Of a DNA stretch of 64,000 nt, positions 26,984-63,722 are shown piece by piece. Both the position numbers and the translations under genes were made by a program. Within the stretch, counting starts at the first letter, position 1, and every line of letters starts with the position of its first letter. Origin of the DNA: Takakia lepidozioides (lineage: Eukaryota > Plantae > Bryophyta); contig CM060731.1 of NCBI GenBank assembly GCA_030704615.1, positions 24,924,001-24,988,000 of the forward strand, read 5' to 3'. The notes under the pieces were generated by a model that saw only the letters and a program-made list of their open reading frames with translations, was not told the DNA's origin and did no database searches.

Positions 26984-29389
26984 GTGAGCTTACAGGATGA
27001 AGTGGTGACTGGTTGGACAATCACAGCTGATGAGCAGGTGAGGGAAGTGAATGTGGGAACTAAAGAGGAACCGAGGATGGTGAAAGTAGGAGCTGATTTG
27101 GAGCCGGAATTCTTCGAAGAAGCTAAAAGCTTGTTCATCAAATACAGAGATGTATTTGCTTGGAGCTATGAGGATCTAAAATGGATACCACCTGAAGTCT
27201 GTCAGCATAAGATTGAACTGGAACCAGGGTCAGTACCAATCAAGCATGCGAGGTACAGAATGAATCCCAACTACGCACAGAAGGTTGGAGAAGAGATAAA
27301 GAAGTTGGCTGAGGCTAAGTTTATATACCCAATAGAGTATACAACTTGGTTGTCACCCATTGTTATAGTTCCCAAGAAGAATGGCAAACTAAGAGTATGT
27401 GTGAACTATAAGAAGCTGAATGCTTGTACAAAGAAAGATCCTTTCCATTTGTCATTCACAGAAGCAGTATTAGACACTGTGGCAGGCCATGAGATGTACT
27501 CATTCATGGATGGCTTCAGTGGTTATAATCAAGTGCAAGTGGCAGAAGAAGACCAAGGGAAAACAACTTTCATCACATACTGGGGGGCTTATGCGTACAA
27601 AGTCATGCCCTTTAGACTTTGTAATGCACCAGCGACCTTTCAGAGAGTGATAAGTGAATCTTTTCATGAGTATCTGGATGATTTCATGCAGGTATTCTTG
27701 GATGATTTCAGTGTGTACAGCTCTAAGAATGAGCACTTGCATAAATTGGAGTTATGTTTGGCCAGATGCAGGATGAGAGGTCTGGGCCTGAATCCAGAGA
27801 AGTGTACTTTCTGTGTGAACTCAGGGGTGCTTCTGGGACACATTGTGTGTAAGAAGGGACTCCTTGTGGATCCCAGAAAGACAGAGTCCATTAAAGCCTC
27901 TCCACCACCAGTGAATGTTAAAAGTCTACGGAGATTCCTTGGGCAAACCAGTTATTACAGGAGATTTGTCAAAAGGTATGCACAAATAGCAGCACCATTG
28001 AGCAAACTACTGAAGAAAGATGCAGTGTTTGCCTGGACAGTTGAATGTCAACAGGCGTTTGAGGAACTTACACTGTCAGTAACAACTACACCTGTGCTGA
28101 TTAACCCTCACTGGCATGTAGTATTCCATGTTCACTGCGATGCATCAGGAGAAGCGTTGGGAGCGGTGTTAGCCCAGAATGTTACAGGGAATATAGATTC
28201 ACCTGTGTACTATGCTAGCCGGTTGATGAACAGTGCTGAAAGGAACTATAGCACAACGGAAAGAGAAGCATTGGCAATGATCTATGCAGTGAAGAAATTC
28301 AGGCATTACCTGTTGGGCAAGAAGTTTATGTTCTATGTGGATCACCAGGCTCTGATATACCTGGTAAACAAACCTCTGATAAGCGGAAGAATAGCAAGAT
28401 GGTTGATAATCTTGCACGAGTTTGAGTTCGAGGTTGTTTACAAGCCTGGGAGACTGCATCTTGTGGCGGATCATTTGTCACGATTGTCAACAGGAGAACC
28501 AGCCACAGGAATAGATGATCAATTACCAGATGCGAGTCTCTTTGCAGTGGAGGTGCAGGGAAGTGCAGATGACTGGTTAGATTGGCAGTGGCCAATCAGA
28601 TACTACCTTGCTCATGGTCAGTGCCCACCTAGTTATGGTAAGGAGCAGAGGAAGAGAATCGCTATCAAAGCTTTACCTTATACTATGATAGGAAGCAGAA
28701 TGTATAAGTTAGGACCTGATGGAGTACTAAAACGATGCTTGTACCACCATGAAGTAAATAAAGTTTTGGCGGAAGTTCATAAAGGAGTGGCTGGAGGTCA
28801 TTTTGGAGAAGAGACTACCAGTAGGAAGATACTACTCGCAGGATACTGGTGGCCTACTTTGTTCAAAGATGTACACGAGTATTGTCAGAAGTGTGATGAA
28901 TGTCAGAGGCTAGGACCTTTGCAGAGATCTGGAAGGATGGCCTTGCATCCTACAATGCCTACGGAACCATTTCAGAAATGGGGACTAGACTTTGTTGGAC
29001 CAATTAACCCACCATCCAAGAATACACGAAACAGGTACATAATTACAGCCACTGATTATACTACAAAGTGGGTGGAAGCTAAAGCTTTGAGGGACAACAC
29101 AGCCAAGTCCACAGCAAGGTTCCTGTACGAGAACATACTTACACGATTTGGCTGTCCCTTAGAATTTATCAGTGATCAGGGAAGTCACTTCATGAATGAG
29201 ACCATTGAGTTATTGACTAAAGAGTTCATGATTGTGCATAGAAAGAGTACAACATATTACCCACAGGGTAATGGGCAGGCAGAGGCTACCAACAAAATAC
29301 TATGTATTATCTTGGCTAAGATAGTCAATGCAAACAGAACGGGATACAAAGCTGCTGACAGCTTTGTGGTCATACAGGACTTCATATAA
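26984..29389 (+). CDS. pol: Pol of copy A: reverse transcriptase, RNase H, integrase
   Basis: RT motifs SFMDGFSGYNQ and FLDD; RH motifs CDAS, EREALA, DHQAL; integrase HHCC, WGLDFVGP, SDQG, NGQAE. A 4-nt deletion near 29340 relative to copy B shifts the integrase C-terminus into the next ORF. Confidence 0.95.
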   Translation: MSLQDEVVTGWTITADEQVREVNVGTKEEPRMVKVGADLEPEFFEEAKSLFIKYRDVFAWSYEDLKWIPPEVCQHKIELEPGSVPIKHARYRMNPNYAQKVGEEIKKLAEAKFIYPIEYTTWLSPIVIVPKKNGKLRVCVNYKKLNACTKKDPFHLSFTEAVLDTVAGHEMYSFMDGFSGYNQVQVAEEDQGKTTFITYWGAYAYKVMPFRLCNAPATFQRVISESFHEYLDDFMQVFLDDFSVYSSKNEHLHKLELCLARCRMRGLGLNPEKCTFCVNSGVLLGHIVCKKGLLVDPRKTESIKASPPPVNVKSLRRFLGQTSYYRRFVKRYAQIAAPLSKLLKKDAVFAWTVECQQAFEELTLSVTTTPVLINPHWHVVFHVHCDASGEALGAVLAQNVTGNIDSPVYYASRLMNSAERNYSTTEREALAMIYAVKKFRHYLLGKKFMFYVDHQALIYLVNKPLISGRIARWLIILHEFEFEVVYKPGRLHLVADHLSRLSTGEPATGIDDQLPDASLFAVEVQGSADDWLDWQWPIRYYLAHGQCPPSYGKEQRKRIAIKALPYTMIGSRMYKLGPDGVLKRCLYHHEVNKVLAEVHKGVAGGHFGEETTSRKILLAGYWWPTLFKDVHEYCQKCDECQRLGPLQRSGRMALHPTMPTEPFQKWGLDFVGPINPPSKNTRNRYIITATDYTTKWVEAKALRDNTAKSTARFLYENILTRFGCPLEFISDQGSHFMNETIELLTKEFMIVHRKSTTYYPQGNGQAEATNKILCIILAKIVNANRTGYKAADSFVVIQDFI

Positions 29390-32300
29390 AGTCACTACTA
29401 AGTATACACCATTCCAATTAGTTTATGGTATGGAAGCCTTACTTCCAGTGGAATTCCTGTTACCTACAATGAGAACGGAGTGGGGAAAGAGAATGGAATT
29501 GCAAGACTCCATCAAGGTCAGGAAACATGAATTATACCATGTGGAAGAAGTACGTGCTGATGCAGCTGATAATATGACCAGAATTCAGATGAAGCGAAAG
29601 GAACAGTTTGATGAAGGCAAGTTAAAGACTTTTAAGACGGGGGATTTGGTTCTATGGTTGCAGAAGAAAGGAAAGATTCAAGCTTCTAAGCTTAAATCAC
29701 CATGGAAAGGACCTTATGTCATACAAAAGATGTATGATAACAACACCGCCATGTTACAAACCATTAACAAAGAAATGCTGGGAAGAGTCAATGCCAATAA
29801 GTTGAAGGGGTACAGTGGTATCCATGACAAACCCTTGCAGCATGATTTGCATGTTGAACCGCAAGAGCAGTCACGGGCTGCACCAGTGTTACAAACGGAG
29901 TATGGAGCACTTGTCGCTAGGCCGAGCATATATGACCAGGGCGGGCAAAACAAACGTGACACAGCCTATCACAGCCCATCAAGGCAAAGCACAACCTATC
30001 ACAGCCCATCACAACGTGACACAGCCTATCACAGCCCAGCACGGCGCAACACAGCCTATCACAACCTACCACAGCGTGTCACAGCCTATCACAGCTTACC
30101 GCAGTGCATCACAGCCTATCACAGCGTAACACAGTATGACACAGCCTGTCACAGCTCAACACAGCCTACTAGGGTTACACGATCCATAGAATCAGTGACA
30201 GGTGGATGCATAATAACTTCAGGAAAATGGCTGACGGAAGAGAAAACGGAAATTAGTTTAAAAATAGACCTTTGGAGGTCAAGGCGCGACACGCAGCTGA
30301 GAAGGAAGTGCAAGAACAGGTGTCATACAGAAAGAGGACAAGAACGGCCGTCAAAAGGGATGAAAGGCGGGCCCATTAATGAATACGGAAAAAGGGAAAC
30401 GGAACGAACGGCAAGTACAGATAAACGAAATTCTTGTCACATGTGTGATCCTAGTGGACTATCCAGCAGGGAAAGTCCACTAAAGAAAATAAAATCTAAA
30501 ATCCAGTCACAGCGGATACAGCCAATAGAAAAGCAGAGAAAGGATCAAGAAAATGGAGGGAAATTGAGCGCAAGAGGCGGCGTCGTTCTGAGTAACGGGC
30601 GTCTCGACGGGACAGACCATCAATGCTATAGCTTGGAAACTATGGAGGAACTAACAGACTATACGCTCGCAATATTACTTACGCAGTGGCATAGACACGA
30701 AAGGACAGAGCAGAGCTTTTCTCTTGAGCGATGCTTGCAAGCCCCGCAGGCTTACAAGAAATTACCCATAGCTTTCTGCGGCAACCATACGTTTATGCTT
30801 TGTGCACTACAGGCATTCCTGCAGTTGTTACAGCCAAAACAGTTCTGTGAGTCTAAAATGAAGAGAGTGAGAGGAATGGAGGAAATCAGGGTGAAGAGCA
30901 CCACAATTCTGCAGAAACAAACGATTGCTACCCCACAGGCAATACAGATACTGGAGGAGCTGAGATTGCAAGGATTGCAAAGCCTAGATTGGACATTACA
31001 CCATAGACAGTACATGTTACAATTTTTGCAGAACTTTGAGCCAAGGACAGGAACAACAACGGTGAAGGGAGTTGAATTGATGATTACTCCCCTATACCTC
31101 CAGCAATTGTTTCGATTGCCAGCAGGTCAGGTGCATGTGGAGGAACACAGGGCAAGACTGCAAATAGGGGACTTATTCCAAGAAGGGAGTTTATTTAAAA
31201 CTCAGGGTTATGCTTGTACCAAGGCTGTGTACCCAGGGCTAAAAGAGGTAGGCCAGGTATTGAACGTTCTGATTGCCATGAAACAGAACCAACAGTATTT
31301 GAGCAGATCCTTCACGGAGGAAATACTCAAAGGCCTGAAGGGACAAGAGGTACAATGGGCGGACATAATGTACAACGCACTGGTGGAGGAGATGAAAAGA
31401 TTACAAGGTACTACCGCAAAGTCTCCTATCATAGTGTCTGGCCCAATCATTGCTCAAATAATCCTTGATTCTGGCATACTTGATGAGCAAGAAAGAAAGG
31501 AAATGGGAGTGTTTGAGCCAGAAACCACTGCAATGGAAGAGCAAGGCTCTTCACACAGTGAGGGTGGACTAGCAGGGCAACCTGAGACTAAGAGGCAGAG
31601 ACGGGGAAAGACTGTAGTGGCGGATCCACTGGTTTCACGGATTCCGCATGATAATGTTTCCCAAGCTCATGTGCAGGAAGGGGCACAACAGCACAGAGAA
31701 ATGCTATTACTGGAAGCAGGACCTTCAGAGAGGGAGGAGGAAGTTACTTCTGTATCACAACCATCACAGCCAGCTGATCGACTTGTCACAAGGTCACAAG
31801 TTATCCATGCAGCTCAACCAGAAATAATTGATTTGGAAAGAGAAGTGTTAGATATTCCAACTACAGAACAGATAGTGGCAGAAATGGAGAAGGGGGACCT
31901 TCTCTATGAATATTCTGGTCTGGTCAAGGAGACAGAGATCCCAGAGGTGCAACAGTTGCCCAAGGGAAATCCTGAGGTGCATATAATACACACACCTGTG
32001 TCGGAGGTACCACAGGCGGAAGGTCATGACACTGTAGCACCGGTGATAGATGAAGTAGTTCAGGAAGAAAATCCGGTGGGACAATGGCCTGAATGGTTCG
32101 TGAGACATCACACTGTTGAGGATCAGGAGGAACAGCATCAACCTCACCATGATGACCCTCAACAGGCAATGCTGATGAGTTCCATAGGCAGGACACTTAA
32201 TTTGTTGGGGACTTATGTCAAATCCCATGTTCCAACTACCCAATTGACAGCCTTGAGAGAGGAACTCAGGAAGGAGTTCGAGGCTCGACTAGCCACTGAG

Positions 32301-34409
32301 TGTGCAAACAAGGTCGATGAAGAGGTCACTCTCAAGATGCAGCAGGACTTGGGAAATACAGAAGCGGCTTTGCAATTGGCCAAGGAACAATTGATTGAGG
32401 CAGGCCTCGCGCAAGACCAGTTGCACGAAGCACATAAGCAACAGCTCTACCAAATGCAGGTGCAGCATGAAAGCAAGTTGCAAGAAGTGAATGCACTACA
32501 TACGGAGTTGCAGACAGTGCATGACAGGATGGCGATACAATGTGCTACATTCACAACTATGCTTGAACAATCTACAAAAGAAATAAACAGTCAAGCGGAA
32601 AAATGTACGAAGGTAGAAGAGGAGAATGTTGAGCAATTGAAACTCATTGTCGATATGAAGAATACAATCTGTCGCAATGAGGATGCTTTCAAGCAATACA
32701 GGCAGGTTGAAGCTGATCAAGATAAGCACATCGTGGAGTTGCACCAAACGATCATGGCCAATAGAAATGAAATCGCGGTCAATAACAAGGCTTGGAGGGA
32801 AGCTAATAATCTGGCTGCTGCCTATGCGAAGTTGGTTGAACCTCAGGCGAAGCGCATGGAGGCTTTACAACAGCAGTTAGAAGTGTACAAGCTAAGAGAG
32901 GAGCAAACTCTCAGGGGAACCACAAGCAACTTGGTGGATAACAGCCTTATGCAGGTCTGGTTAGCACAAGGGCCAGTAGAGGGCAAAGCACCACGAAAGC
33001 TCACCCAAAGGGAGATGAATGAGCTCAGGCTGCAGGTGCAGAACATTGCCACAACTACTATAGACAATGTCTATAGTAGGATAGCAAAGTTACAAGAGGA
33101 TGTAGACGGACTGCAGACTCAAGTGGAGGACCTCACTTCAAACATCGACAAAAGAGTCTATATCCCTCAGGAACAGCTAATGGCTTCTTATTTACAAGCC
33201 AGAACTTTGGTTTTTCAGTCTTCACAGGAGGTGCAGGAGATGCCAATGATACAAGAGCCAGTACCACCACCACCACAACAAGTCACTGTACCAGTAGCTG
33301 AACCTGTGGTTACTACAACCACACCACAGCCACCACAGCCTGAGGTATGGGGCAATGCTGCTTTTAACCCACCTAAAACTCCAGCTGCAAGGGAGTACAG
33401 TAGGGCTATGATTATGCCCTTCAACCAAATTCCCATCATGTTGGATTTGGCTTGGAAAGAATTTAGTCCTCCGCAGTCATTCGCACATTACTACCAAATC
33501 ATGCGTATTTGGCTGCCAGTGGCAACTAGGACTAAAGTTCTTCCGAACAATCGACATATTGAAGATCATCACTTTGCACAATACTGGCACGAGGCAGGTA
33601 CCATGTTGAGGGAATTGATTGCTTTCCAGGTTGTACATGGACTCATTTATACCAAGACCAAGGAGGTAGCAAGTACTGTCATGGGATGCGGGTTATACTA
33701 CGCTGCTTGTTTTCTAGTACGTTATCACATTGAGCAACAAAAGATGCAAGCACGCTTTCTCAGTTATTCCAGTGGGGACCATTGGGTATTACCTTCGGTG
33801 CCACCTCATATGTACCTATATGACGCAAAAGCTATGATGCAAAAGGATTCTCAAATTCGTTCATGGTTTCAAGCGGCCTGGAACAATTTGTCAAAACAGA
33901 AATTCGGCATTGACGATATATTCTATAAGGGACATGTGGCATGGAAATACTTGCACGCTGCACCAGTAATTGGTACCCCACTCACCTGGACAGACAAGGA
34001 GCTCAGTGTCTACACCAATTTTGCTGTTCAGCGGTTACACCAAGTTGTAAAATATAAACTTCCAGACATGGTAGGACAACATTATATGCCCCAGATGATT
34101 CCACAAAAAGTTCAAAAATTAAAACACCAGAGAGGCGATGAGGATTCTGATACAACTGTTTCTTCACCGAATTCTTTTGACATGGGAGAAGACTATGCAA
34201 TTCAGATGGCGGAGAAGAAGCGACGGGGGTCTCCTATGCCGGAAAGGTTACCTCGATATCAGCCTCCAGAGGGACTCACTTATCCAGGTAGTGACCAACC
34301 ATCTCCGTCAACCAGAGACAGACCTAGGGCTCGTACACACAGTCCGCCAAGAAACTTTCAACGTCAAAAAGGTGCTCACTCACAAAGGTTTGCTAATCGA
34401 AATCAGTAA
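29328..34409 (+). CDS. Integrase C-terminus (GPY) in frame with a repeat linker and a ~1180-aa extra 3' ORF (possible own start 30858)
   Basis: 1693-aa open frame: ...SPWKGPY..., TAYHSP decapeptide repeats, then MKRVRG...FLQNFEPRTGTTTVKGVELMITPLYLQQLFRLP...WADIMYNAL, a long heptad coiled-coil and an aromatic-rich C-terminal domain. Confidence 0.8.
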   Translation: MQTERDTKLLTALWSYRTSYKVTTKYTPFQLVYGMEALLPVEFLLPTMRTEWGKRMELQDSIKVRKHELYHVEEVRADAADNMTRIQMKRKEQFDEGKLKTFKTGDLVLWLQKKGKIQASKLKSPWKGPYVIQKMYDNNTAMLQTINKEMLGRVNANKLKGYSGIHDKPLQHDLHVEPQEQSRAAPVLQTEYGALVARPSIYDQGGQNKRDTAYHSPSRQSTTYHSPSQRDTAYHSPARRNTAYHNLPQRVTAYHSLPQCITAYHSVTQYDTACHSSTQPTRVTRSIESVTGGCIITSGKWLTEEKTEISLKIDLWRSRRDTQLRRKCKNRCHTERGQERPSKGMKGGPINEYGKRETERTASTDKRNSCHMCDPSGLSSRESPLKKIKSKIQSQRIQPIEKQRKDQENGGKLSARGGVVLSNGRLDGTDHQCYSLETMEELTDYTLAILLTQWHRHERTEQSFSLERCLQAPQAYKKLPIAFCGNHTFMLCALQAFLQLLQPKQFCESKMKRVRGMEEIRVKSTTILQKQTIATPQAIQILEELRLQGLQSLDWTLHHRQYMLQFLQNFEPRTGTTTVKGVELMITPLYLQQLFRLPAGQVHVEEHRARLQIGDLFQEGSLFKTQGYACTKAVYPGLKEVGQVLNVLIAMKQNQQYLSRSFTEEILKGLKGQEVQWADIMYNALVEEMKRLQGTTAKSPIIVSGPIIAQIILDSGILDEQERKEMGVFEPETTAMEEQGSSHSEGGLAGQPETKRQRRGKTVVADPLVSRIPHDNVSQAHVQEGAQQHREMLLLEAGPSEREEEVTSVSQPSQPADRLVTRSQVIHAAQPEIIDLEREVLDIPTTEQIVAEMEKGDLLYEYSGLVKETEIPEVQQLPKGNPEVHIIHTPVSEVPQAEGHDTVAPVIDEVVQEENPVGQWPEWFVRHHTVEDQEEQHQPHHDDPQQAMLMSSIGRTLNLLGTYVKSHVPTTQLTALREELRKEFEARLATECANKVDEEVTLKMQQDLGNTEAALQLAKEQLIEAGLAQDQLHEAHKQQLYQMQVQHESKLQEVNALHTELQTVHDRMAIQCATFTTMLEQSTKEINSQAEKCTKVEEENVEQLKLIVDMKNTICRNEDAFKQYRQVEADQDKHIVELHQTIMANRNEIAVNNKAWREANNLAAAYAKLVEPQAKRMEALQQQLEVYKLREEQTLRGTTSNLVDNSLMQVWLAQGPVEGKAPRKLTQREMNELRLQVQNIATTTIDNVYSRIAKLQEDVDGLQTQVEDLTSNIDKRVYIPQEQLMASYLQARTLVFQSSQEVQEMPMIQEPVPPPPQQVTVPVAEPVVTTTTPQPPQPEVWGNAAFNPPKTPAAREYSRAMIMPFNQIPIMLDLAWKEFSPPQSFAHYYQIMRIWLPVATRTKVLPNNRHIEDHHFAQYWHEAGTMLRELIAFQVVHGLIYTKTKEVASTVMGCGLYYAACFLVRYHIEQQKMQARFLSYSSGDHWVLPSVPPHMYLYDAKAMMQKDSQIRSWFQAAWNNLSKQKFGIDDIFYKGHVAWKYLHAAPVIGTPLTWTDKELSVYTNFAVQRLHQVVKYKLPDMVGQHYMPQMIPQKVQKLKHQRGDEDSDTTVSSPNSFDMGEDYAIQMAEKKRRGSPMPERLPRYQPPEGLTYPGSDQPSPSTRDRPRARTHSPPRNFQRQKGAHSQRFANRNQ
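29958..30170 (+). repeat. 30-bp tandem repeat (10-bp CACAGC periodicity), 7 units, copy A
   Basis: acagcctatc-type units start at 29961, 29991, 30021, 30051, 30081, 30111 and 30141. Confidence 0.9.
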
Positions 34410-38860: not shown

Positions 38861-39179
38861 GGAGTTGCGGTTGCCCAGCGGGGCAAGATGCCGACACTAG
38901 CAGCATTTGCAACGGTAGTGAGTTGGCCTGGAGAGTTGCTTGAGGGCAACGCTCATTCAGAGGATGTGTCACCTCCAAAAGAGTAGGAAGACATGTATGG
39001 TATGGCGGAGTTGTCTGCCATGGTTGCTCAGACTCCATTATGGGGCACGAACAAGGATTTGCAGCGGGTTGCTAATCGACGGGTGCAACAAGCCTGGGTG
39101 GAGGCTTTTGTACCATCAAGAGAGGAGGAGAGTGTGGGGATTGCACCAGGACCACCTCAGTTGTCTCCATTGGAGGCAG

Positions 39180-40140
39180 TATCCGGATGAAGGCATTTGT
39201 CTTCTGGACTTGTTTGGCGGGATCAGCACCGGATTGGCTGCTGTGTTACAGGCAGGTTTACGAGTTCGGCGTTACCTGTATGTCGAGAGAAATAAGACTG
39301 CACGACGCATTTCACTTCGTCATGTTGCTCAGTTGGTGCAGCAGTACCCTGAGTTGTTGCCGATGTTTGCAGTTCGTGGATATCAGCAGGCCTTGCCAGC
39401 AGACATTTCGTTGCTGGGGGCGCAGGATTGGGAGCGGGTTGGCTCCATTGATCTGGTAGTGGCAGGTTGGCCCTGCCAAAGGCATTCATTAGCCGGGCAT
39501 GGCAATGGATTGCAAGACTCAAGGTCGGGTCTGTTTTGGGAGATGGTGCGGGTTTTGCGCCACTTGCAGCTTCATCAAGCTGTATCTCCAGCATACATCT
39601 TGGAGAATGTGCCACTGATGGGCGATTCTCAGGCCAGGGTGATGGCCAGTGTGCATCAAGTCCGGTCATGGCTTGGGTCAGCAGTGTTGCTAGATGCAGC
39701 TACAGTGGGGTCACGGGTTCATCGTCCACGGCTATGGTGGACTAACTTGATGTCACCCGCACTGCTCAAGCGTGCATTTGATGGGGTGCAGCGGCCAGCA
39801 CATCTCACAGTGGATAGCATTTTGGACACAGGGAGGCAGTCTCAGCGTGTGAGACACGATGACCATTCGCCTTTGGCAGTGGTCAACAAGGTGGGGTCAA
39901 CCACGAGCAGCATTACCTACACTGCTCAGCTTCCCAGGATCGCATATTTTCCGGGATAGTGGACCTGGCCTCCAGTGGGATGCTCAGTTGCAGCAGTTAG
40001 TAGAGCCTAATGCTGAAGAGCGTGAGCAGGCAATGGGTTTTACCACTGGTACCACGGCGGTGCTGTCTCTTTCTGAGGCATCACGTCGTCAAGTGTTGGG
40101 GCAAGCAATGGATCTCAATTGCTTGACCTGGATTATCAGC
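39180..40140 (+). pseudogene. C5-cytosine DNA methyltransferase domain (DNMT3-like) inside the retrotransposon Pol
   Basis: Motif I LLDLFGG (39201), II YVE, IV DLVVAGWPCQ (PC at 39471), VI YILENV (ENV at 39603), VIII HRPRLWWTNL (RPR at 39723). After a frameshift at ~39893: IX EREQAMGFTTGTT and X RRQVLGQAM. Confidence 0.93.
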
Positions 40141-49265: not shown

Positions 49266-49283
49266 CCTTATGTCATACAAAAG

Positions 49284-52200
49284 ATGTATGATAACAACAC
49301 CGCCATGTTACAAACCATTAACAAAGAAATGCTGGGAAGAGTCAATGCAAATAAGTTGAAGGGGTACAGTGGTATCCATGACAAACCCCTGCAGCATGAT
49401 TTGCATATAGAACCGCAAGAGCAGTCACGGGCTGCACCAGTGTTACGAACGGAGTTTGGAACACTTGTCGCTAGTCCCAGCATATATGACCAGGGCGGGC
49501 AAAACAAACGTGACACAGCCTATCACAGCCCATCAAGGCAAAGCACAGCCTATCACAGCCCATCAAGGCGCAACACAGCCTATCACAGCCCATCACGACG
49601 TGACACAGCCTATCACAGCCCAGCAAGGCGCAACATAGCCTATCACAGCCCAGCACGGCGCAACACAGCCTATCACAACCTACCACAGCGTGTCACAGCC
49701 TATCACAGCTTACCACAGTGCATCACAGCCTATCACAGCGTAACACAGTATGACACAGCCTGTCACAGCTCAACACAGCCTACTAAAGTTACACCATCCA
49801 TAGAATCAGTGACAAGTGAACACATAATAACTTCAGGAAAATGGATGACGGAAGAGGAAACGGAAATTACTTTAAAAATAGACACATGGAGGTCAGGGCG
49901 CGACACACAGCAGACAATGAAGTGCAAGAACAGGTGTCAAAAAGAAAGAAGACAAGAACGGCCGTCAAAAGGGATGAAAGCCAGGCCCATTAATGAGTAC
50001 GGAAAAAGGGAAACGGAACGAACGGCAAGTACAGAAAAGCCGAATTCTTGTCACATGTGTGATCCTAGTGGACTATCCAAGAGGGAAAGTCCACTAAAGA
50101 AGATAAAATCTAAAATCCAGTCACAGCGGATACAGCCAATAGAAAACCAGAGAAAGGATCAAGAAAATGGAGGGAAATTGAGCGCAAGAGGCGGCGTCGT
50201 TCTGAGTAACGGGCGTCTCGACAGGACAGGCCATAAATGCTATAACTTGGAAACTATGGAGGAACTAACAGACTATATGCTCGCAATATTACTTACGCAG
50301 TGGCATAGACACGAAAGGACAGAGCAGAGCTTTTCTCTTGAGCGATGCTTGCAAGCCCCGCAGGCTTACAAGAAATTACCCATAGCTTTCTGCGACAACC
50401 ATACGTTTATGCTTTGTGCACTACAGGCATTCCTACAGTTAATACAGCCAAAACAGTTCTGTGAGTCTAAAATGAAGAGAGTGAGAGGAATGGAGGAAAT
50501 CAGGGTGAAGAGCACCACGATTCTGCAGAAACAAACAATTGCTACCCCACAGGCGATACAGATACTGGAGGAGCTGAGATTGCAAGGATTGCAAAGCCCA
50601 GATTGGACACTACACCATAGACAATACATGTTACAATTTTTGCAGAACTTTGAGCCAAGGACAGGAACAACAACGGTGAAGGGAGTTGAATTAATGATTA
50701 CTCCCCTATACCTCCAGCAATTGTTTCGATTACCTGCAGGTCAGGTGCATGTGGAGCAACACAGGGCAAGACTGCAAATAGAGGACTTATTCCAAGAAGG
50801 GAGTTTCTTTAAAACTCAGGGTTATGCTTGTACCAAGGCTGTGTACCCAGGGTTAAAAGAGGTAGGCCAGGTATTGAACGTTCTGATTGCCATGAAACAG
50901 AACCAACAGTATTTGAGCAGATCCTTCACGGAGGAAATACTCAAAGGCCTGAAGGGACGAGAGGTACAATGGGCGGACATAATGTACAACGCACTGGTAG
51001 AGGAGATGAAAAGATTACAAGGTACTACCGCAAAGTCTCCTATAATAGTGTCTGGCCCAATCATTGCTCAAATAATCCTTGATTCTGGCATACTTAATGC
51101 GCAAGAAAGAAAGGAAATGGGAGTGTTTGAGCCAGAAACAACTGCAATGGAAGAGCAAGGCTCTTCACATAGTGAGGGTGGACTAGCAAGGCAACCCGAG
51201 ACTAAGAGGCAGAGACGGGGAAAGACTGTAGTGGCGGATCCACTGGCTTCACGGATTCCGCATGATAATGTTTCCCAAGCTCATGGACAGGAAGGGGCAC
51301 AGCAGCACAGAGAAATGCTATTACTGGAAGCAGGACCTTCAGAGAGGGAGGAGGAAGTTACTTCTGCATCACAACCAGCCACCTCGACTTGTCACAGGTC
51401 ACAAGTTATCCATGCAGCTCAACCAAAATAATTGATTTGGAAAGTGAAGGGTTAGATATTCCAACTACAGAACAGATAGTGGCAGAAATAGAGAAGGGGG
51501 ACCTTCTCTATGAATATTCTGGTCTGGTCAAGGAGACAGAAATCCAGAGGTGCAACAGTTGCCAAGGGAAATCCTGAGGTGCATATAATACACACACCTG
51601 TGTCGGAGGTACCACAGGCGGAAGGTCATGACACTGTAGCCCCGGTGATAATGAAGTAGTTCAGGAAGAAAATCCGGTGGGACAATGGCCTGAATGGTTA
51701 GTGAGACATCACACTGTTGAAGATCAGGAGGAACAGCAGCAACCTCACCATGATGACCCTCAACAGGCAATGCTGATGAGTTCCATAGGCAGGACACCTA
51801 ATTTGTTGGGGACTTATGTCAAATCCCATGTTCCAATTACCCAATTGACAGCCTTGAAAGAGGAACTCAGGAAGGAGTTTGAGGCTCGACTTGCCACTGA
51901 GTGTGCAAACAAGGTCGATGAAGAGGTCACTCTCAAGATGAAGCAGGACTTGGGAAATACAGAAATGGCTTTGCAATTGGCCAAGCAACAATTGAATTGA
52001 GGCAGGCCTTGCGCAAGACCAGTTGCACGAAGCACATAAGCAACAGCTATACCAAATGCAGGTGCAGCATGAAAGCAAGTTGCAAGAACTGAATGCACTA
52101 CATACGGAGTTGCAGACAGTGCATAACAGAATGGCGATACAATGTGCTACATTTACAACTATGCTTGACCAATCAACAAAAGAAATAAACAGTCAAGCGG

Positions 52201-54027
52201 AAAAATGTACGAAGGCAGAAGAAGAGAATGTTGAGCAAATGAAGCTCATTGTCGATATGAAGAATACAATCTGTCGCAATGAAGATACTTTCAAGCAATA
52301 CAGGCAATTGAAGCTGATCAAGAGAAGCACATCGTGGAGTTGCAACAAACCATCATGGCCAATAGAAATGAAATCGCGGTCACTAACAAGGCTTGGAAGG
52401 AAGCCAATAATCTACTTGCTGCTTATGCGCAATTGGTTGAACCTCAGGCAAAGCGCATGGAGGCTTTACAACAGCAGTTGGAATTGTACAAGCTGAGAGA
52501 GGAGCAAACTCTCAGGGGAACCACAAGCAACTTGGTGGATAACAGCCTTATGCAGGTCTGGTTAGCACAAGGACCAGTAGAGGGCAAAGCACCACGGAAG
52601 CTCACCCAAAGCGAGATGAATGAGCTCAGGCTGCAGGTGTCAGAACATTGCCACAACTACTATAGACAATGTCTATAGTAGGATAGCAGAGTTACAAGAG
52701 GATGTAGACGGACTCCAGACTCAAGTCGAAAAACTCACTTCAAACATCGACCAAAGAGTCTATAGCCCTCAGGAACAGCTAATGGCTTCTTATTTACAAG
52801 CCAGAACTTTGGTTTTTCAGTCTTCACAGGAGGTGCAGGACATGCCAATGATACAAGAGCCAGTACCACCACCACCACAACAAGTCACTGTACCAGTAGC
52901 TGAACCTGTGGTTACTACAACCACACCACAGCCACCACAGCCGGAGGTATGGGGCAATGCCGCTTTTAACCCACCTAAAACTCCAGCTGCAAGGGAGTAC
53001 AGTAGGGCTATGATTATGCCCTTCAACCAAATTCCCATCATGTTGGATTTGGCTTGGAAAGAATTTAGTCCTCCGCAGTCATCGCACATTACTACCAAAT
53101 CATGCGTATTTGGCTGCCAGTGGCAACTAGGACTAAAGTTCTTCCGAACAATCGACATATTGAAGATCATCACTTTGCACAATACTGGCACGAGGCAGGT
53201 ACCATGTTGAGGGAATTGATTGCTTTCCAGGTTGTACATGGACTCATTTATACCAAGACCAAGGAGATAGCAAGTATTGTCATGGGGTGCGGGTTATACT
53301 ACGCTGCTTGTTTTCTGGTACGTTACCACATTGAGCAACAAAAGATGCAAACACGCTTTCAAAGTTATTCCAGTGGAGATCATTGGGTATTACCTTCGGT
53401 GCCACCACATCATATGTACCTATATGACCCAAAAGTTATGATGCAAAAGGATTCTCAAATTCGTTCATGGTTTCAAGCAGCCTGCAACCATTTGTCAACA
53501 CAGAAATTCGGCATTGATGACATTTTCTATAAGGGACATGTGGCATGGAAGTACTTGCACGCTGCACCAGTAATTGGTACCCCACCACCCACTCACCTGG
53601 ACAGACAAGGAGCTCAGTGTCTACACACAATTTTGCTGTTCAGCGGTTACACCAAGTTGTAAAATACAAACTTCCAGACATGGTAGGACAGCATTGTATG
53701 CCCCAGATGATTCCACAAAAAGTTCAAAAATTAAAACACCTGAGAGGCGATGAGGATTCTGATACAACTGTTTCTTCACCGAATTCTTTTGACATGGGAG
53801 AAGACTATGCAATTCAGATGGCAGAGAAGAAGCGACGGGGATCTCCTATGCCGGAAAGATTACCTCGATATCAGCCTCCAGAGGGCCTCACTTATCCAGG
53901 TAGTGATCAACCATCTCCGTCAACCAGAGACAGACCTCGGGCTCGTACACACAGTCCGCCACGAAACTCTCAACGTCAAGAAGGTGCTCACTCACAAAGG
54001 TTTGCTAGTCGAAATCATAAACCGTGA
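49284..54027 (+). pseudogene. Extra 3' ORF of copy B, frameshifted (9 repeat units at 49511-49783)
   Basis: Colinear with 29730-34409; open for 715 aa, then several single-base indels. Confidence 0.88.
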
Positions 54028-55499: not shown

Positions 55500-57922
55500 T
55501 GTTAGAGGGCTGCTGGGACTTAGACGCTTTTACGGGTTCTGTGGGTACCCTTAATTTTGCGTACACTAAGACCAACAGGAAGCCTTAGGGGTGGTAGGAG
55601 CAGGCTTTAGGGGGGTTACACGCCAACAGCCCGTCAACAGTCTATCACACAGCCCACACAGCTTCACACAACCAGTCACAGCCCGACACCAACTTTACCC
55701 AGCCTGTCACACGTACATGGGGAACATTTTCATTGACGGGAACGACTGTGTGGGAACGACATCTGCAGAGAGAACGTGTTACCTCAGGGGTGACCGTTAG
55801 TTAGTTAGGTGGTTAGAACAGCTTGCGGATAGATTAGGCAGAGCGGCATCAGGAAGGGTATCACTTCTTGAGGAGGGTGATTTGTTCAGGAGAGGAAGAG
55901 ACGTAACGGAGAGCGGAAACAATGAAGAGGAGATGATGACTTGAATGAGGCTTAGTTCATGCAAGCTGTAAAATTATACAGTAGGGTAGAATAGAGACAC
56001 CATGGCATAGGCATGATACAAGATTAATCTTAATCCGATACTGAATCGATACAAACATACTGTGTAGAGAGACACAAGAGAAGATGTGGAATGAATGCAT
56101 GATTAATTGGAACTTAGTAGATACTGAAGCAATCTGATGCTTCAGTATACACGGTAAGGTAAATTGATAACATGAAGGCAGGAAGGAATACAAATAGGAA
56201 GCACAACCATGATTCATTAGCTACAGGTCATGACTGATTGTTCTGAGCGGGCTGAGTGCTTAGAGATATCCAACTCTTCTATCTTGGAGTTCCCACCTCA
56301 GATAGCGAAGGGATGGGTGAGTAAAAGCCGCTCGACATTTGGCGACCATACTTGGGAACTGGGTCATGAACAACCAGATGTGACAGGCATCTGGTGGGAT
56401 CATGGTGGTTGGAGAATTAAAGAATTTGATGTGTATCAAATTCCCTGTGGAACTGAGAAGGAAAGATTGTCTAAACAATTCTTTCAGAGGTTCTTGGAAT
56501 TGCCAGACGGTTGTAAAGAAAACATTCATAAGAGAGTGCATGATGCTGACCCGGAGTGGGGTCTGGATAAAGGAGTGATAAAGATCAGGTGGCCTGTAGA
56601 GGAAGAGCACATTGCTGGTTTATGTGATAGCATTGCTATCCATTAAGCGAGTAGAATTTGAAGGCTGGGAGGAAAGGAAGGTTAATGTTTATACTCATAT
56701 GCATGAGGAGCTTGTACTGGTAAAGAATTGGATTCCAAAGGATATTCTGTGGATCAAACTCACACCAAGAACAGCTTTTCAGACTTGTTTGCCATATGGT
56801 TATATGGTAATAGAGACTTCTAGTATAGCCAAGGCTGCATTGAAGCTTGAAAGAAACTCAGGCATATACGAGAGATACTACAGAAGAGAGTTTTGGTTAT
56901 TGCCACATTAAAGAAATGAAAGACATGGGACATGAGTGATGAAAGAGAAGCTAGACTCCAGAGATATTCAGCAAAAAGATAAAGCTATCTGAAAGCTAAT
57001 TATCCATATCTTTGGGAGAGAGGAATAGACATAGGGGAATCATCTGGACCTCTCACACCATTAAGATTAGAGAGTACATCACCCATACCAGAAGAACTAG
57101 AGTTGGATGCCACTCATTCTTTTTCTTTGCAAGAAAGATTAAGGGAATTGGTACAAGAAGAAGATCAACCACGAGGTGAAAGATCTGAGGTACATCCCTG
57201 GATAAAAGATTTGACACAAATCTTTGATAAGAGTTGGCATGGAACACCAAAAGCAGGAACTCCAGTTTCTGAAACGGAAGACGAAGAAGGAGGAGAGGAT
57301 GTGGCAGAGCCAACGAAGAGTTCAGACTCTCCAACACCATTGCAATTGAGTTACATGAGTGAAGAAGAAGAAACCCAAGGGCAGAACTTGGAAGATGAAA
57401 ACAGAGAGAAGAAATTGGAAGAGGAAGAATATGAAGAAGTAGACCCAACAGCTGAGGTTGAGACTACAACCAGGACATCCCAACCCGTTGGACCTGGAAC
57501 AAGTGGAGCACTTGGATCACAGGCCAACGAAGGTGTCGGCTCAGGGGGATCAAGCGGGCAACCTGGATCTAGCTCTGGGGGGACAGGGAGTGTGGGAAGT
57601 AGTGCAATTGGAGCTGGGAATACTGTGAATATAGTGGGGCCAGTAGCAGGGAGTGCTCAGGGGCCAGCACTTGGTGGAATTTCCACCACAACTACAACAG
57701 GTTCTCAAGGACCAGCACTAGCAAGGGGGCCAGTACCTGTCAGTAGGGAGGGGGTAGGGCCACAGATGGCGTTACAACCAACACGGGCAAAACCACCTTT
57801 TCCAATATATTCAGGAAAAGGGGATCCTGATGTACACATTAGCCAATTTGAGCACATGTGTATTGTGAACAATGAGAATGGCGATGATGCCAACATGAGA
57901 CTGTTTCCTTGTTCACTTATAA
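55500..57922 (+). mobile_element. Family 1 copy C, 5' part: diverged LTR (55500-56337), PBS (56340), 5' ORF, partial gag
   Basis: TGTTAGAGGG...GCTCGACA then TGGCGACCATA. The internal region matches 42763-44358 and stops at LFPCSLI. Confidence 0.92.
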
Positions 57923-58144
57923 AGGGGGGCTGCTATTTCATGAGCGGCATGAGCATGAGCGGAAAAAAAAAAGCATGAGCAGACCATTGTGAGTCCACGG
58001 AAATAGGGTTAGGAGGCACGGAAATAGGGTCATGTGAAGTTGGAATGTGGCACCAGTGGACTTAAAATGCAACATTTTATTGCAAATTTTGTGGCAAGCC
58101 ACGTCTATACAAGTGTGTTCTAACTGTCATAGCCGGAATGGGCA

Positions 58145-61100
58145 CTACTCTCCTACACCCTCCGAGGAACTTGCCCCACCTTCTTCCTCATCCCCCTCAT
58201 CCCCCTCATCCTCCGAGCTCTGTGATGCATCAGTTCCACTATGCCTCTCAAAAATCCCGTCCTCTCCTTGGGGGACTGTCCACCTCACCTCCTGGGAATC
58301 TTCTGCGTCTTCTCCCCCACTTTCCTCAGCAGAATCCAACACAAATCTACGAGCCCGACGGGCTCTAATAGCTGCTGCCTCCTCCCTCATCTTCATTTTC
58401 TTGAGGCTTGCCTCGTCTAAAATCTGCTGTACACGACTACGTTCGGAACACCTCCTAATGGACACCGAAGCAAGCCGGGCAGCATAAGTAGGCAGGATGT
58501 ACTCCCTTTCTGGACTAGGCATGAAATCTCCCCTGGCAAAAAAAGGCACGTTCCTCCTGCCCATGAACTCCGGTGTAGACGTCCCTCCGGCAGTACTTGG
58601 CATCCTACAGTAAGAACAAATCCACTTGAAGAATGTCAATACCAGCACAACCAGAAAGGGTTTTCAATGAAATAAGAGAGCGGAGGGAGGTGCCTCACAA
58701 AATCTGGAGGCAACTTACAATGCCACCACTCACTCGTAAACCGGGGGCTCCTCGGCCTCGATCCCAACTTCCTCCCCCTGCTCCTTCTCGGATTTTTCCT
58801 CATCCTCCGAGGATGCCTCTTCCTCTTTCGGCAGACGTTCAGCCGCTGCAAGTTCCGAGTTGTGGAGGGCAGTATCTGGCTCGAAGGCGAACACATGCCT
58901 GTCGGACAACGTCCCTGCCCACATTGAAGCACCTGAGGAACAAAGCGGGCGGTTAATAGCTTGCGGCATGCAATTGCAATGGGGCCAGGGGACAAACTGA
59001 GCACGTGAAGGCTTACCCGTGCCGCATGTGAGGTCCAGAATCCGCCCTTGGACATCCGAGCACGTCTCCATGAGGGTTTGGATGAAAGCAGGGCTCGGGT
59101 CCGGCTGTACCGCCACGGTTTGCCTGTCTTTGTGTCCTTCGGCATACTAGAGTGGGGCACATAGTTGTAGAGGACATCGTAGGTTACAGGGTCCACAGCG
59201 GCATCAACAAGACGACCGTCGTTGCGGAATTTGAACGTAGACCCTCTCTTCACAAAGCAATATGCCTCAAACACCAATGTCTGCACATCCAACAAAGAAG
59301 GGATCAATTCCAGGGTCTACTTAACATACACCACAATATGAAGTGAATGCAATAGATTGATAACTTACACTTTGGCCCTCTGTTCGCAACCCCTGCGTAC
59401 TGATGCAGAACCATTTTCTGAGGAGGACCGGGGTGACACTTTTCGGTGTCCACCTTGCCACCGCATTCTCTGTGGTCTTCCCTCTCGTGGCAAGGACAAC
59501 CACACATCCACCGTCATCCAGAAGCATCCCCGCCAGCCCAAACCCGGCTTTCCAGTAGTCCTCAGTAAACCTGTTCCAGGTGGGCACACCATCCAGGCCC
59601 TCCAGCAGCTCCCCATCTGGAATGTCGAGGAGAATCATGTCGCAAGCTCTCTCCACCTCAACCCCCCCCGAGTGCTCTTGCAATTCGTGCTCACAGCCGT
59701 GAAGAATTCCATCATGGCTTCAAAACCAGGGGTGTCTTTAGGCTCTGTACCGGCAGCCCTCTTCTTGGCTTTTCCCTTCTGCTCCGCCAGAGACTTGTTG
59801 TGTGCCACCTTCTTCGCCCTGGCAGCGAGAGCGTCAAGGAAGCTCTCATTGACGCATTGGATGATGGTTGGAGGTTCTAGCTTTGGCCTGTGCGTAAACG
59901 TCACCGCCGAATACCGCCGTGTAGGCTCGCCCTCAAATGCCAACTTCTTGGCAGAGCCAGTCCCACTCCGAACTGACTTGGGAACCCGGACGACCGGTGA
60001 CTGGGTAGGAGCAACAGCAGTCGCAGGACCTTGAACAAAATCGGCGTCGGAGTCACTCTCTTGGGTCCCCTCCTGCGCCTCCTCCGATGCCCCGATGGTT
60101 TTCTTCTTTTTGGGTGTTACTGCAGTCACCTGTTTCCTTGTCCTTTTCCTTTGACCTTTACTCTTCTCATGCAATTTCTCTTGAATTCCTGCCTGAGCAA
60201 GCTCTGCCGCTTTCCTGGAGTTCGCAAGCGCTTTTGCCTCTTTTGCACCCAACGGAGGCAGCGGAGCCCGGTTTCGTCGGAATTCAGCATCCAGCTTCAA
60301 TTGAAACTCGGATGGGTCGAGCGAGCCGGGCGGAAGGTCCACATACCAAGGGCAATCACGCAAATGTTCCAGATGCCACTCCTTCACAATATCGTCAGTG
60401 TACATGGAGTCAGCCCCAGGGTTCCTCCATGCCAGGAAGAATGGTGGCTCGAAAGACAGATGACCTTTCTCCAAAAGCGAGAACTTACAGTACCTGCATT
60501 CATGAAAAACCCAATGAGGTCCGAAAATGGCTAACTCCCTGAACGGCAATAGGGCCTACAACTGGAATATGGCGCCGAATTTCCACTTCAGGGCCACCCA
60601 GTGTAGGGACTTAGCCCGAAAATGGCTAAGTCCCTGGACGGCAATACGGCCTGGAACTGGAAAACGGCGCCGAATTTCCACTTCCGGGCCAGCCACCCTA
60701 GGGACTTACACAAAAAATGGCTAAGTCCCTGGACGGCAATAGGGCCTAGAACTGGAATACGGCGCCGAATTTCCAGTTCCGGGCCAGCCACCCTAGGGAC
60801 TTAGACCGAAAATGGCTAAGTCCCTGGACGGCAATAGGGCCTGGAACTGGAATATGGCGCCGAATTTCCACTTCAGGGCCAGCCAGTCTAGGGACTTAGG
60901 CCCGAAAATGGCTAAGTCCCTGGACGGCAATAGGGCCTAGAACTGGAATACGGCGCCGAATTTCCAGTTCCGGGCCAGCCACCCTAGGGACTTAGACCGA
61001 AAATGGCTAAGTCCCTGGACGGCAATAGGGCCTGGAACTGGAATATGGCGCCGAATTTCCACTTCAGGGCCAGCCAGTCTAGGGACTTAGCCCGAAAATG

Positions 61101-63722
61101 GCTAAGTCCCTGGACGGCAATAGGGCCTAGAACTGGAAAACGGCGCCGAATTTCCAGTTCCGGGCCAGCCACACTAGGGACTTAGCCCGAAAATGGCTAA
61201 GTCCCTGAACGGCAATAGGGCCTGGAACTGGAAAATGGCGCCGAATTTCCAGTTCCGGGCCAGCCAGTCTAGGGACTTTGCCATTTTCGGAGCCCTGACT
61301 GGAAATTCGGCGCCATTTTCCCTAACACCACTTAGGCCTCTAACATCCTGAAATGCCAGGACTTGAAAGAAAGGCAGCGCGTATGTACCTGTACAGAAGG
61401 CGCATTGCTGCTTTGTCCGCGTTCGGCTGGTCGGTGAACTCGTGGCTCCGGCGAGCATCTGCTATCTCCCGAAAGAATAGGTTGGTTTTGTAGAGCAGAA
61501 AGTACCTCGTCACATAGTCACGCAGGCTCTCTGCTGCAGGAGATATCTCCATCTTGAACTGATGTGCTTGTGTGTCCAGCTGCTCTTGCGCATTCGTCGT
61601 CACCTGTGGAGATTGTCCATCAGATCGCTTTCCTCAAAAAATACAATGAATCAACCCCCTACTAGAGTACAAGCCCCAAACGAAGCGTGGGGAAGTACCT
61701 GAAACCACCATGTCATGCGGTTCATCCACATGTCGAATGTGGGGTCAGAGAGTTTGTCCGGTTTGGGGAAGCTCCACATGTCCCTGGTACTTTGGGAACC
61801 ATTCCAGATTTGGAGCCACCGGGTCTGTCCAACCACCCAGCATATTCGTAAGCGCCAAACACCACAAAAAGGAGTTGTTGCCACCACAATTTGGTTAAGA
61901 ATGTATCACCTTTTCTGTTGCATCCACACAGGATGTGGCTAGACGATGGAGCTTCTCCAATGTCATCGTGGGCTTCAGAGCGCGAGAGTAGTGCTTTCCC
62001 ACCTCCACCAGAAAGTCGGCACCAAGGCGGGATCAGCTATGGCCACGTACTTTACCATCCGCGACTTGTACTTTATGCGGGCCCTCACCTCCGCAGCTTT
62101 GACATACGATTCGAGTTCCGGGAGGGTTGGATTCTTCTCCTCTGACTCCATGTAGAACCTCCGCGCATGTGCCAAATCCTGCTGTATTTTCGTCTGTCGA
62201 AAAGCAGCACATAAGATTAGAGATCCTGCTCAACACAATTTCTTCTATTGGGGGAGGAGAGACAAATTAGCTCAACAAAACTGCAGGAGCTTTACCCGAA
62301 ATATGTAGTCCACCATGGCGTCGACGCTCAGCCTATACCAGGTTCTGTCTGCCTTTGCCTCCGACTTGCGCAGGAGGTCGGCACTGAGGGAATTGGCAAA
62401 CTCTTCCACCCCCTGCCTCCCGACATCCTTCACTCGGAAGAGCATATGGGACAAGTTGGTGGCAATGAAGGCATTCTCAGTCACCCTGCAGTGCCACATT
62501 TCCATCAAACAATACTGAAATGGGAATTTTCATCATATATGAGGATTCGCAATGAAATGACTTCCAAATTCAAAGTCCAAAAGCGAGAGGGGTTGTAGCT
62601 TACGAGTTGATGTCGGCCATTGCAGCTTTGAGAAGACTGCGATCTTTGGGCCCGCAACCTTCAGCACAACACAATCGACGGCGAAATGCCAATCGAGATC
62701 GTTGGGGTGGGCTTGGGCAATGTGCTCCATCCATGCCAGGAGGCGATGATTGCCGTCCCACACGTAGAACATCTTACCGGACATGTGCTGGAAAAGAGGA
62801 TCACTAGCAATCGATCTCTCGAACTCCTCATTTCGCGTTTGCCAATGGGGACCCCATTTGTCCACCTCATCGGAAGTGTGGGCACGGGAAGCTCCGTGGT
62901 CGTTCTCAATGGAAACGTAAAAGGCGGCAGACCCCATTCGATATCCATCCCGGAAAGAGAATTTCAGCTTGTCGATATCGCCTGGGAGGGCAGGTCTCAC
63001 CACCTGCAATGACACCAAGCGGCAAAGGGGAATTCGAAGCTTGGCCGGGTACACCATGCCCCCCAGCACCCTGCCAATGTTGCTGTGGGTTGCCTCCAAC
63101 ATCTTGGCAGCGGCCAACTTCATATCCGCCTCAGACATGACGACGTCTGCTGCAGAGGGTTTTCCGGCAGCCCACCAAGACCGCCAAATCCAGCCTGTAT
63201 GCTCCGGGTTTGGGGCCTGGGGATGTCCGGGGAGAATGTCATCCTGGTCAGAAACATCCATGTCGTCCTCCTCAACAGGGTCAGCCACCTGCGAAACCAC
63301 CTCCAGCACTCTCGTCGTCTCTACTGCCCTCTCCCTGGCTTCACCTCGAACTTGCACAATCGGTGCTCTTTCAGGTGTTCTTTCCTCTCCTCCACTCTCC
63401 ACCGTATGGGTAATTGCGGGGGCTGCACTTGCCCGCGATGGTCTAACCGGTGTGCTACTGCCTCTCTCTGTGTGTGTCTTGTAGGGATCCACCTCTCTGT
63501 GTGTCCCTCGCTTACATTGGCATCTGTCATTTGGGCACCCCGGGCCTCTTCAGCTGCCTTTTGTCTTTCCTCCTTGCTAGCATTCTGTCTCGTCTGTTCT
63601 TTTGCCCTCTCTTTTGCCCTCTCACGGGCTTTCTGTTTCTTACTAGGGCTAGCAACAGGGGAGCCCTCCAGGACGACCACCTTTGATTGAGGCGAACTGA
63701 CACCCTCGCGCGCACTGCTCAC
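58145..63722 (-). CDS. Spliced gene: ParB/Srx-like domain + beta-class amino (N4C/N6A) DNA methyltransferase-like domain; several 1-nt frameshifts; 5' end uncertain
   Basis: Exons 62604->63722, 62296-62485, 61910-62178, 61699-~61845, 61389-61603, 59369-60493, 59017-59280, 58734-58932, 58145-58604. Boundaries are GT-AG and phase-consistent except the acceptor near 61845. ParB motif FYVWDGNHRLLAW (DGNHR at 62743-62757). MTase motif IV DMILLDIPDG (DIPD at 59615-59626) precedes motif I-II ILDLTCGTG|ASMWAGTLSDRHVFAFEPD. Confidence 0.75.
60521..61290. repeat. Intronic tandem array of eight ~95-bp palindromic units
   Basis: Units start at 60521, 60616, 60711, 60806, 60902, 60997, 61092 and 61187. 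Each has CTAAGTCCCT...GGCCTGGAACTGGAA..(C/T)GGCGCCG..TTCCAGTTCCGGGCC...AGGGACTTAG. The array lies in intron 60494-61388. Confidence 0.95.

Follow-up and report, generated by a model that had tools for sequence, protein, structure and literature searches.

In a 64,000-nucleotide stretch of the Takakia lepidozioides (Bryophyta) genome (assembly GCA_030704615.1, contig CM060731.1, positions 24,924,001 to 24,988,000 of the forward strand; hereafter the window, whose own numbering is used), long nested palindromes are arrayed inside an intron of a gene that joins a ParB-like domain to a DNA methyltransferase-like domain (the ParB-MTase gene) and that appears to belong to a transposon. This raises the question of whether the palindromes are a working part of that element or only travel with it. 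We propose that the array, expanded through tandem duplication, is probably the element's own candidate DNA docking site for the ParB-like protein that the gene encodes. This reading is supported by the ParB/Srx fold of the protein family, the array junctions found in many copies of the element, a CGGCGCCG centre that recurs in a distant subfamily, and published precedents; the parS-like docking site itself is a proposal with such precedent, not a result. The array and its intron are laid out as follows:

60521 to 61281, no strand assigned: eight nested palindromes of 95 bp in tandem, with WWYGGCGCCGAA at the centre of each
61187 to 61290, no strand assigned: last unit, which nine added bases complete to a 104-bp palindrome; arms 24 nt long and 92% complementary
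61292 to 61322, minus strand: inner half-hairpin repeated in inverted orientation, carrying a ninth core
60494 to 61388, minus strand: GT-AG intron containing the array, from GT at 61388 to AG at 60494, 895 nt

The initial annotation, made from the sequence alone, had described eight tandem 95-bp palindromes, and the mapped unit starts (60521, 60616, 60711, 60806, 60902, 60997, 61092 and 61187) together with the Tandem Repeats Finder (TRF) result (period 95, 8.0 copies, 91% matches) bear this out. The units are 95 bp long in all but unit 4 (96 bp), and 77 of the 94 columns of their alignment are invariant. The nested layout was also recovered, with outer arms CTAAGTCCCT/AGGGACTTAG, inner arms that retain one fixed mismatch, and a central GGCGCC offset by half a base from the arm axis. 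As had been noted, the array ends in the reverse complement of the unit start (CCATTTTCGG at 61281-61290), which completes the last unit and gives it terminal inverted repeats like those of a miniature inverted-repeat transposable element (MITE). Two further details had to be revised. The alternation of two unit variants holds for units 3-7, where units 4 and 6 are identical, units 3, 5 and 7 differ from one another by 2-4 positions and the two classes differ by 6-8, but it is broken at units 2/3. The interval first assigned to the array covers the eight units at 60521-61281, but its final ~30 bp belong to the inverted half-hairpin fragment at 61292-61322, a similar piece of which is left in one array-less copy (loose end behind 60522, run X6). 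Upon folding, each of the eight unit-sized pieces was more stable than all of its 200 shuffled counterparts (z -3.7 to -6.9), and the units fold stably on both strands.

The cores of the units cluster at this place. GGCGCC occurs nine times in the window, every time within the array or the inverted fragment, and YGGCGCCGAA with at most one mismatch matches 13 times against 1.64 expected, 11 of the matches lying in the array or fragment. The nine YGGCGCCGAA cores, imperfect palindromes in which every C is a CG or CCG target, form a cluster of short palindromes near the gene as in ParABS systems. The unit spacing corresponds to ~9.05 helical turns, so the 95-bp period places the cores on one face of the helix.

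That the array is intronic, as initially claimed, is supported by the GT-AG model and by a 1179-nt contig of run X8 that joins both flanking exons exactly at this intron. This contig comes from a sister copy, with 20 differences in 794 bases, and three more introns are skipped in other contigs of X8; this run is taken as RNA by guess, supported by the four GT-AG joins, as no run is recorded as RNA. Without the array and the fragment the intron would measure ~93 nt, and the six other modelled introns of the gene measure 84-118 nt. The gene itself is arranged as follows:

62604 to 63189, minus strand: exon part with the ParB/Srx-fold domain and WDGNHR motif; frameshift near 62650 in the window copy
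61389 to 62485, minus strand: middle exons, with introns 62179/62182-62295 and 61604-61698; frameshift near 62025
58148 to 60493, minus strand: downstream exons with a conserved helical part, linker, beta-class methyltransferase-like domain and acidic tail
within 58148 to 60493, minus strand: methyltransferase-like part, with DIPD at motif IV and DLTCGTG at motif I
within the downstream exons, minus strand: introns 59281-59368, 58933-59016 and 58605-58718; frameshifts near 59661 and 59095

The window copy contains several frameshifts, of which the main contigs of X5 and/or X6 lack four (near 59095, 59661, 62025 and 62650), implying that the window copy is either dead or miscalled in homopolymers. 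The identification as a ParB-MTase gene stands. The N-terminal domain has a match (E 1e-35) in Ceratodon M758_1G295400, which is itself PF01555-positive above cutoff, the fusion of a ParB-like domain to a DNA-modifying domain recurs with PF01555 above cutoff in homologs P0003 and P0004, and the three downstream gene pieces are collinear with the Ceratodon homolog (P0003, 1147 aa), their alignments being weak. A profile search collected 993 protein clusters at E<=0.001; the ten looked up came from Riccia sorocarpa (six), Adiantum nelumboides (one) and entries without an organism (three). A structure model of the family domain built from 120 sequences (pLDDT 91), for which the modelled homolog, P0006, is 41% identical to the window's ParB domain, had Noc, ParB, Srx (sulfiredoxin), PadC and KorB as its top structural matches at modest scores: Foldseek probabilities reached 0.99 (E 0.008-0.07), and VIA gave Z 7.3/7.2, with all eight rows at Z>=5 assigned to the ParB/Srx superfamily. 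For some of these eight rows the superfamily membership is our assumption. These matches cover only about residues 1-190 of the model, and the DGNHR motif is kept in 75-99% of aligned rows. Pfam returned nothing but weak DndB and DUF1015 rows for the ParB part, sequence searches of the Protein Data Bank (PDB) with the gene gave nothing useful, and Atlas hits of the ParB part to DUF3723 (0.95-0.96) serve as a lead only; for the middle gene region Atlas had no usable hit. No ParA ATPase was present among the open reading frames (ORFs) scanned in the visible 6 kb of the element, which extends past the window.

In the methyltransferase-like domain the motifs follow the beta-class order IV, target-recognition domain (TRD), I, the DIPD exon preceding DLTCGTG. 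The catalytic motif of beta-class N4C/N6A methyltransferases is (D/N/S)PP(Y/F/W), from which the DIPD of the window departs; the homologs have DTPF, DQPY, DMPS, DVPF or DVPS at this position. We rejected identity with Marchantia DN4MT1, which the accessible part of its description presents with TSPPY and without ParB.

The gene has reached its present place by insertion, as the sharp stop in homology and the empty sites at one element end indicate:

57923 to 58030, no strand assigned: one element end, (AG)GGGGGCTGCTATTTC..., with subterminal repeats CATGAGC (four times) and CGGAAATAGGG (twice)
55930 to 57924, plus strand: host gypsy gag copy into which the element has inserted

The homology to the window's other gypsy copy ends at 57924, and loose ends behind this position in runs X1, X5 and X6 represent the empty site. 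The element is likely mobile and is high-copy: 26,250 X1 contigs align on 2.8 kb and 14,109 on 1.5 kb of it, and the 1.75-Mb assembly of X5 contains it as a 1.3-kb contig at depth 81 (gypsy, 132); run X10 contributed no aligned contig. With one end visible, Harbinger, Mutator and Sola are all candidates for its superfamily. One X8 contig matches only the terminal 57923-57969 (47 bases), with different flank and interior, and is possibly a relative sharing the element end. The observed/expected (o/e) CpG ratio is 0.63-0.70 in the element against 0.26-0.48 in the gypsy copies, which youth or coding constraint would fit as well as protection and which we do not count as evidence.

The array probably belongs to the element, with most copies carrying it. 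In X6, a contig spanning the last unit, the fragment, the intron and the exon has a depth of 128, compared with 133-270 for the long gene contigs; X5 holds an identical right array junction. We noticed that variant junctions at 61322 in X6, with nine other letters, add depths of 29 and 19.5, which suggests sister subfamilies with rearranged arrays. The ratio of unit depth to gene depth, about 2.4-4 in X1, 6-12 in X6 and 1.3 in X5, is in the range expected for up to ~8 units per copy and leaves little room for a large dispersed family, although these depth sums over short contigs are inflated by them and are not copy numbers. The unit-start loose ends that were listed lead into other units or the inverted fragment, with no foreign flanks. 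A dispersed MITE or satellite origin is therefore unlikely. The initial annotation had held that its link between array and gene would fail if the unit were such a dispersed repeat or were absent from most paralogs; on this rough evidence neither was observed, unit depth being just 1.3-12 times gene depth and the junction reaching about two-thirds of gene depth in an independent run.

We also found hairpins beside distant relatives of the gene. Decayed, AT-rich and spliced relatives lie at 19 metagenome loci, which are presumably plant, and viral_contigs contained no relatives of the ParB alignment; a 26-nt pattern of the array unit had no match in metagenome_contigs or genome_contigs. Two of the loci, L002 (to which the window's ParB part gives its best tblastn match) and L004, belong to a subfamily with 35-41% protein identity to the window gene. 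In both, 51-bp hairpins are repeated in tandem from a donor-like site towards the motif-IV exon, in the stretch between the two, which would place them in a different intron of the same gene. Tandem inverted repeats thus accompany the gene both in the window and in L002/L004. When hairpin sites were picked by their 7+7 arm letters alone (at least 13 of 14), and L003 was dropped as a duplicate of L004, 15 sites were found in 4 of the 18 loci, seven in the motif-IV-side intron and eight upstream, 0.3-1.6 kb from the ParB match; the remaining flanks had none. A looser hairpin scan gave 51 hits versus 16.5 in shuffles. CGGCGCCG under C>T/G>A decay explains 118 of the 120 letters in the 8-base centres of these sites (next best, 104), so the centres are best explained as methylation decay of CGGCGCCG. 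The centre of the window unit is CGGCGCCG followed by AA, and its arms are unrelated to those of the L002/L004 hairpins. Given a palindromic centre, the coincidence has a rough p of about 6e-4, which correction for some eight comparisons raises to about 5e-3. A centre common to the window and the distant subfamily is suggestive rather than proof.

Other ParB-MTase subfamilies have differing repeats, namely hairpins of the form GGGGAG...CTCCCC lying upstream, 42-bp arrays, or tandem arrays of 17 bp in the gene span (L001:381,668; L005:137; L017:8741; L018:86; L019:6478-7968; L006:2489-2665; L010:1529-1707). A truncated gene without a Pfam hit abuts the ParB region at L004:7119-9101 (minus strand) and is presumably Mutator-like, judging from its motifs. 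As a partner transposase, this gene beside L003/L004 was rejected, being cut off at the start of the ParB region and present at no other locus. At L004:10973-16831 a long terminal repeat (LTR) element sits inside the ParB gene.

Several observations weigh against the docking-site proposal. The intron equivalent to the array intron is conserved in the relatives but is array-free in all six loci that cover it. The shared centre is a single comparison, and the four loci that have strong sites seem to represent a single subfamily (L004 aligns with both L002 and L016), the other 14 of the 18 having none; moreover, the decay model has a bias towards all-GC ancestors, which leaves the corrected p at no better than about 0.005. 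Of the protein, no helix-turn-helix (HTH) or other site-reading domain was identified, the structural matches ending at about residue 190, and methylation activity is doubtful given the non-canonical motif IV, DIPD. No transposase and no second end lie inside the window, the far end being beyond 64000. One X6 contig runs from the left flank into a diverged half-hairpin without the array and is an array-less copy or relative. Finally, the listed loose ends are a minority, with 238 and 365 further ones besides, and X1 is possibly the source sample itself.

The array might instead be a neutral passenger, a foldback element or mini-MITE that arose or inserted once in a founder intron, was tandemly amplified and spread with the element. 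Such an origin would account for the array-less X6 copy, for the empty equivalent intron in six of six relatives and for the form of the last unit, which is a full palindrome of 104 bp whose arms measure 24 nt, and giant transposons are described as carrying fixed nested insertions (PMC12477816). It does not explain the distribution. No target-site duplication of the array is evident against the single array-less contig, there is neither a large excess of units nor, among the loose ends listed, any foreign flank, and the same-centre tandem hairpins in another intron of the 35-41%-identical subfamily are left unexplained. We consider this explanation unlikely, and of the mini-MITE alternative in the initial annotation we keep the account of the last unit's shape and set aside the rest.

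The palindromes could also be sites for a transposase of the element, which may lie in the part that runs past the window, or for a host factor. In favour of this idea, plant DNA transposons have arrays of subterminal repeats at which their transposase binds. The array here, however, lies 2.6 kb from the visible end, which bears its own, different short repeats, and in the relatives the sites go with the ParB gene, being found in its intron and upstream of it; we hold this to be quite improbable. The initial annotation had further considered that the spliced intron might be a multi-hairpin small-RNA precursor. In our version of this idea, the small RNAs would regulate the element. Every unit folds stably on both strands, the intron is removed in a transcribed copy, and incidental production of small interfering RNAs (siRNAs) would be plausible. 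However, compensatory or one-sided changes were seen in none of 26 pairs and seven pairs are merely broken (a weak test, with seven distinct rows), the Rfam matches are far under threshold (38 versus 196 bits; 27 versus 80), and the relatives share the loop sequence and not the stem. With no positive support and no covariation among the seven distinct units, weak as this test is, a precursor role seems very improbable.

Among the neighbours of the element, two gypsy copies (29325-34409 and 49266-54027, plus strand; 94.6% identical) have a long extra ORF after the integrase, which in the first is an open frame of 1694 aa, and CACAGCC-type tandem repeats run inside and beyond it in both. In a further gypsy-type element (38922-39959, plus strand), the gag-protease and reverse transcriptase parts are separated by an ORF that resembles C5 cytosine methyltransferases (PF00145, E 2e-12). 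The window also contains a single-frame MADS-box gene (2075-3340, plus strand; SRF-TF, E 2e-16), which we take to be type I-like from its layout. At 19180-21640, diverged inverted repeats (69-76% identity) are nested about a core rich in AT, possibly an old foldback element.

The docking-site proposal has precedents in known systems, which we compare as far as the accessible parts of the sources go. In red-algal Plavaka (EnSpm) elements, tandem inverted repeats lie beside ParB-domain PAG3 genes and self-binding was proposed (10.1101/2025.02.11.637652). PAG3 is, and the window gene probably is, a transposon accessory gene; both have an N-terminal ParB-like domain and tandem inverted-repeat arrays, and in both a role in self-binding or self-modification is at the proposal stage. 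PAG3, however, is fused to a 2OG-oxygenase, with the adenine methylase as a separate gene, whereas the window gene is a ParB and methyltransferase-like fusion; the Plavaka arrays are described as adjacent and red-algal, whereas the array here is intronic and in a land plant. Ectocarpus Sola1-1_Ec32 has an accessory gene of 1104 aa with ParB and an N4C/N6A methyltransferase (PMC12477816). Its two-domain order is identical to that of the window family, its size similar (1104 vs 1147 aa in Ceratodon P0003) and its carrier a DNA transposon, as the window's element may be; the likeness compared is one of domain order, size and carrier, and the accessible text mentions no palindrome array. ParB-HTH-fused methylases of another group occur in chlorophytes and chytrids (PMC4738411). 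Like the window system, the bacterial clamps ParB/parS, Noc/NBS, KorB and VirB combine a ParB/Srx fold, a GxHR-type nucleotide motif and clustered short palindromes; unlike them, the window system has no ParA seen and no HTH identified, and its sites are nested in 95-bp intronic hairpins. VirB is reportedly a ParB-type antisilencer (PMC10770331). VANC of Arabidopsis binds its own transposon at motifs that are repeated in tandem within introns and elsewhere in the non-coding sequence (PMC5735166). VANDAL/VANC resembles the window system in having an element-encoded accessory protein and intronic or non-coding motifs that are tandemly amplified and family-specific, but the VANC motifs are 8-9 bp and non-palindromic with proven binding, whereas the window sites are palindromic and their binding is predicted. 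VANC is not known to be a ParB-fold protein. The listings returned by our literature search, which had supplements (including the Plavaka repeat tables) outside its scope, contained no description of the land-plant ParB-MTase family or its arrays.

Our best reading is that the candidate sites would work like parS or VANC targets. A single CGGCGCCG-centred intronic site may have grown into a hairpin and then multiplied through slippage or unequal crossing-over. As a dimer, the encoded protein would bind the cores aligned along one helix face, perhaps loading as a nucleotide-gated clamp and spreading, and the bound protein would bring the methyltransferase-like domain, so that the element could be marked or shielded against silencing. 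In an intron, the sites would travel with the gene and leave the protein undisturbed. The fuller version, in which land-plant transposons carry a working ParB/parS-like clamp with loading at an intronic CGGCGCCG-centred array shared by distant subfamilies, CpG/CCG sensing or blocking, spreading, and marking or unsilencing of their own element, is a tentative and rather doubtful one. Should the docking-site proposal be correct, plants would possess a second kind of transposon that targets itself, alongside VANC, and this one would use a bacterial clamp fold. We regard the system as a land-plant variant of the layout published for the red-algal Plavaka elements and not as a new class; this case offers a young, transcribed, high-copy land-plant family together with a concrete candidate site, the centre of which recurs in a distant subfamily.

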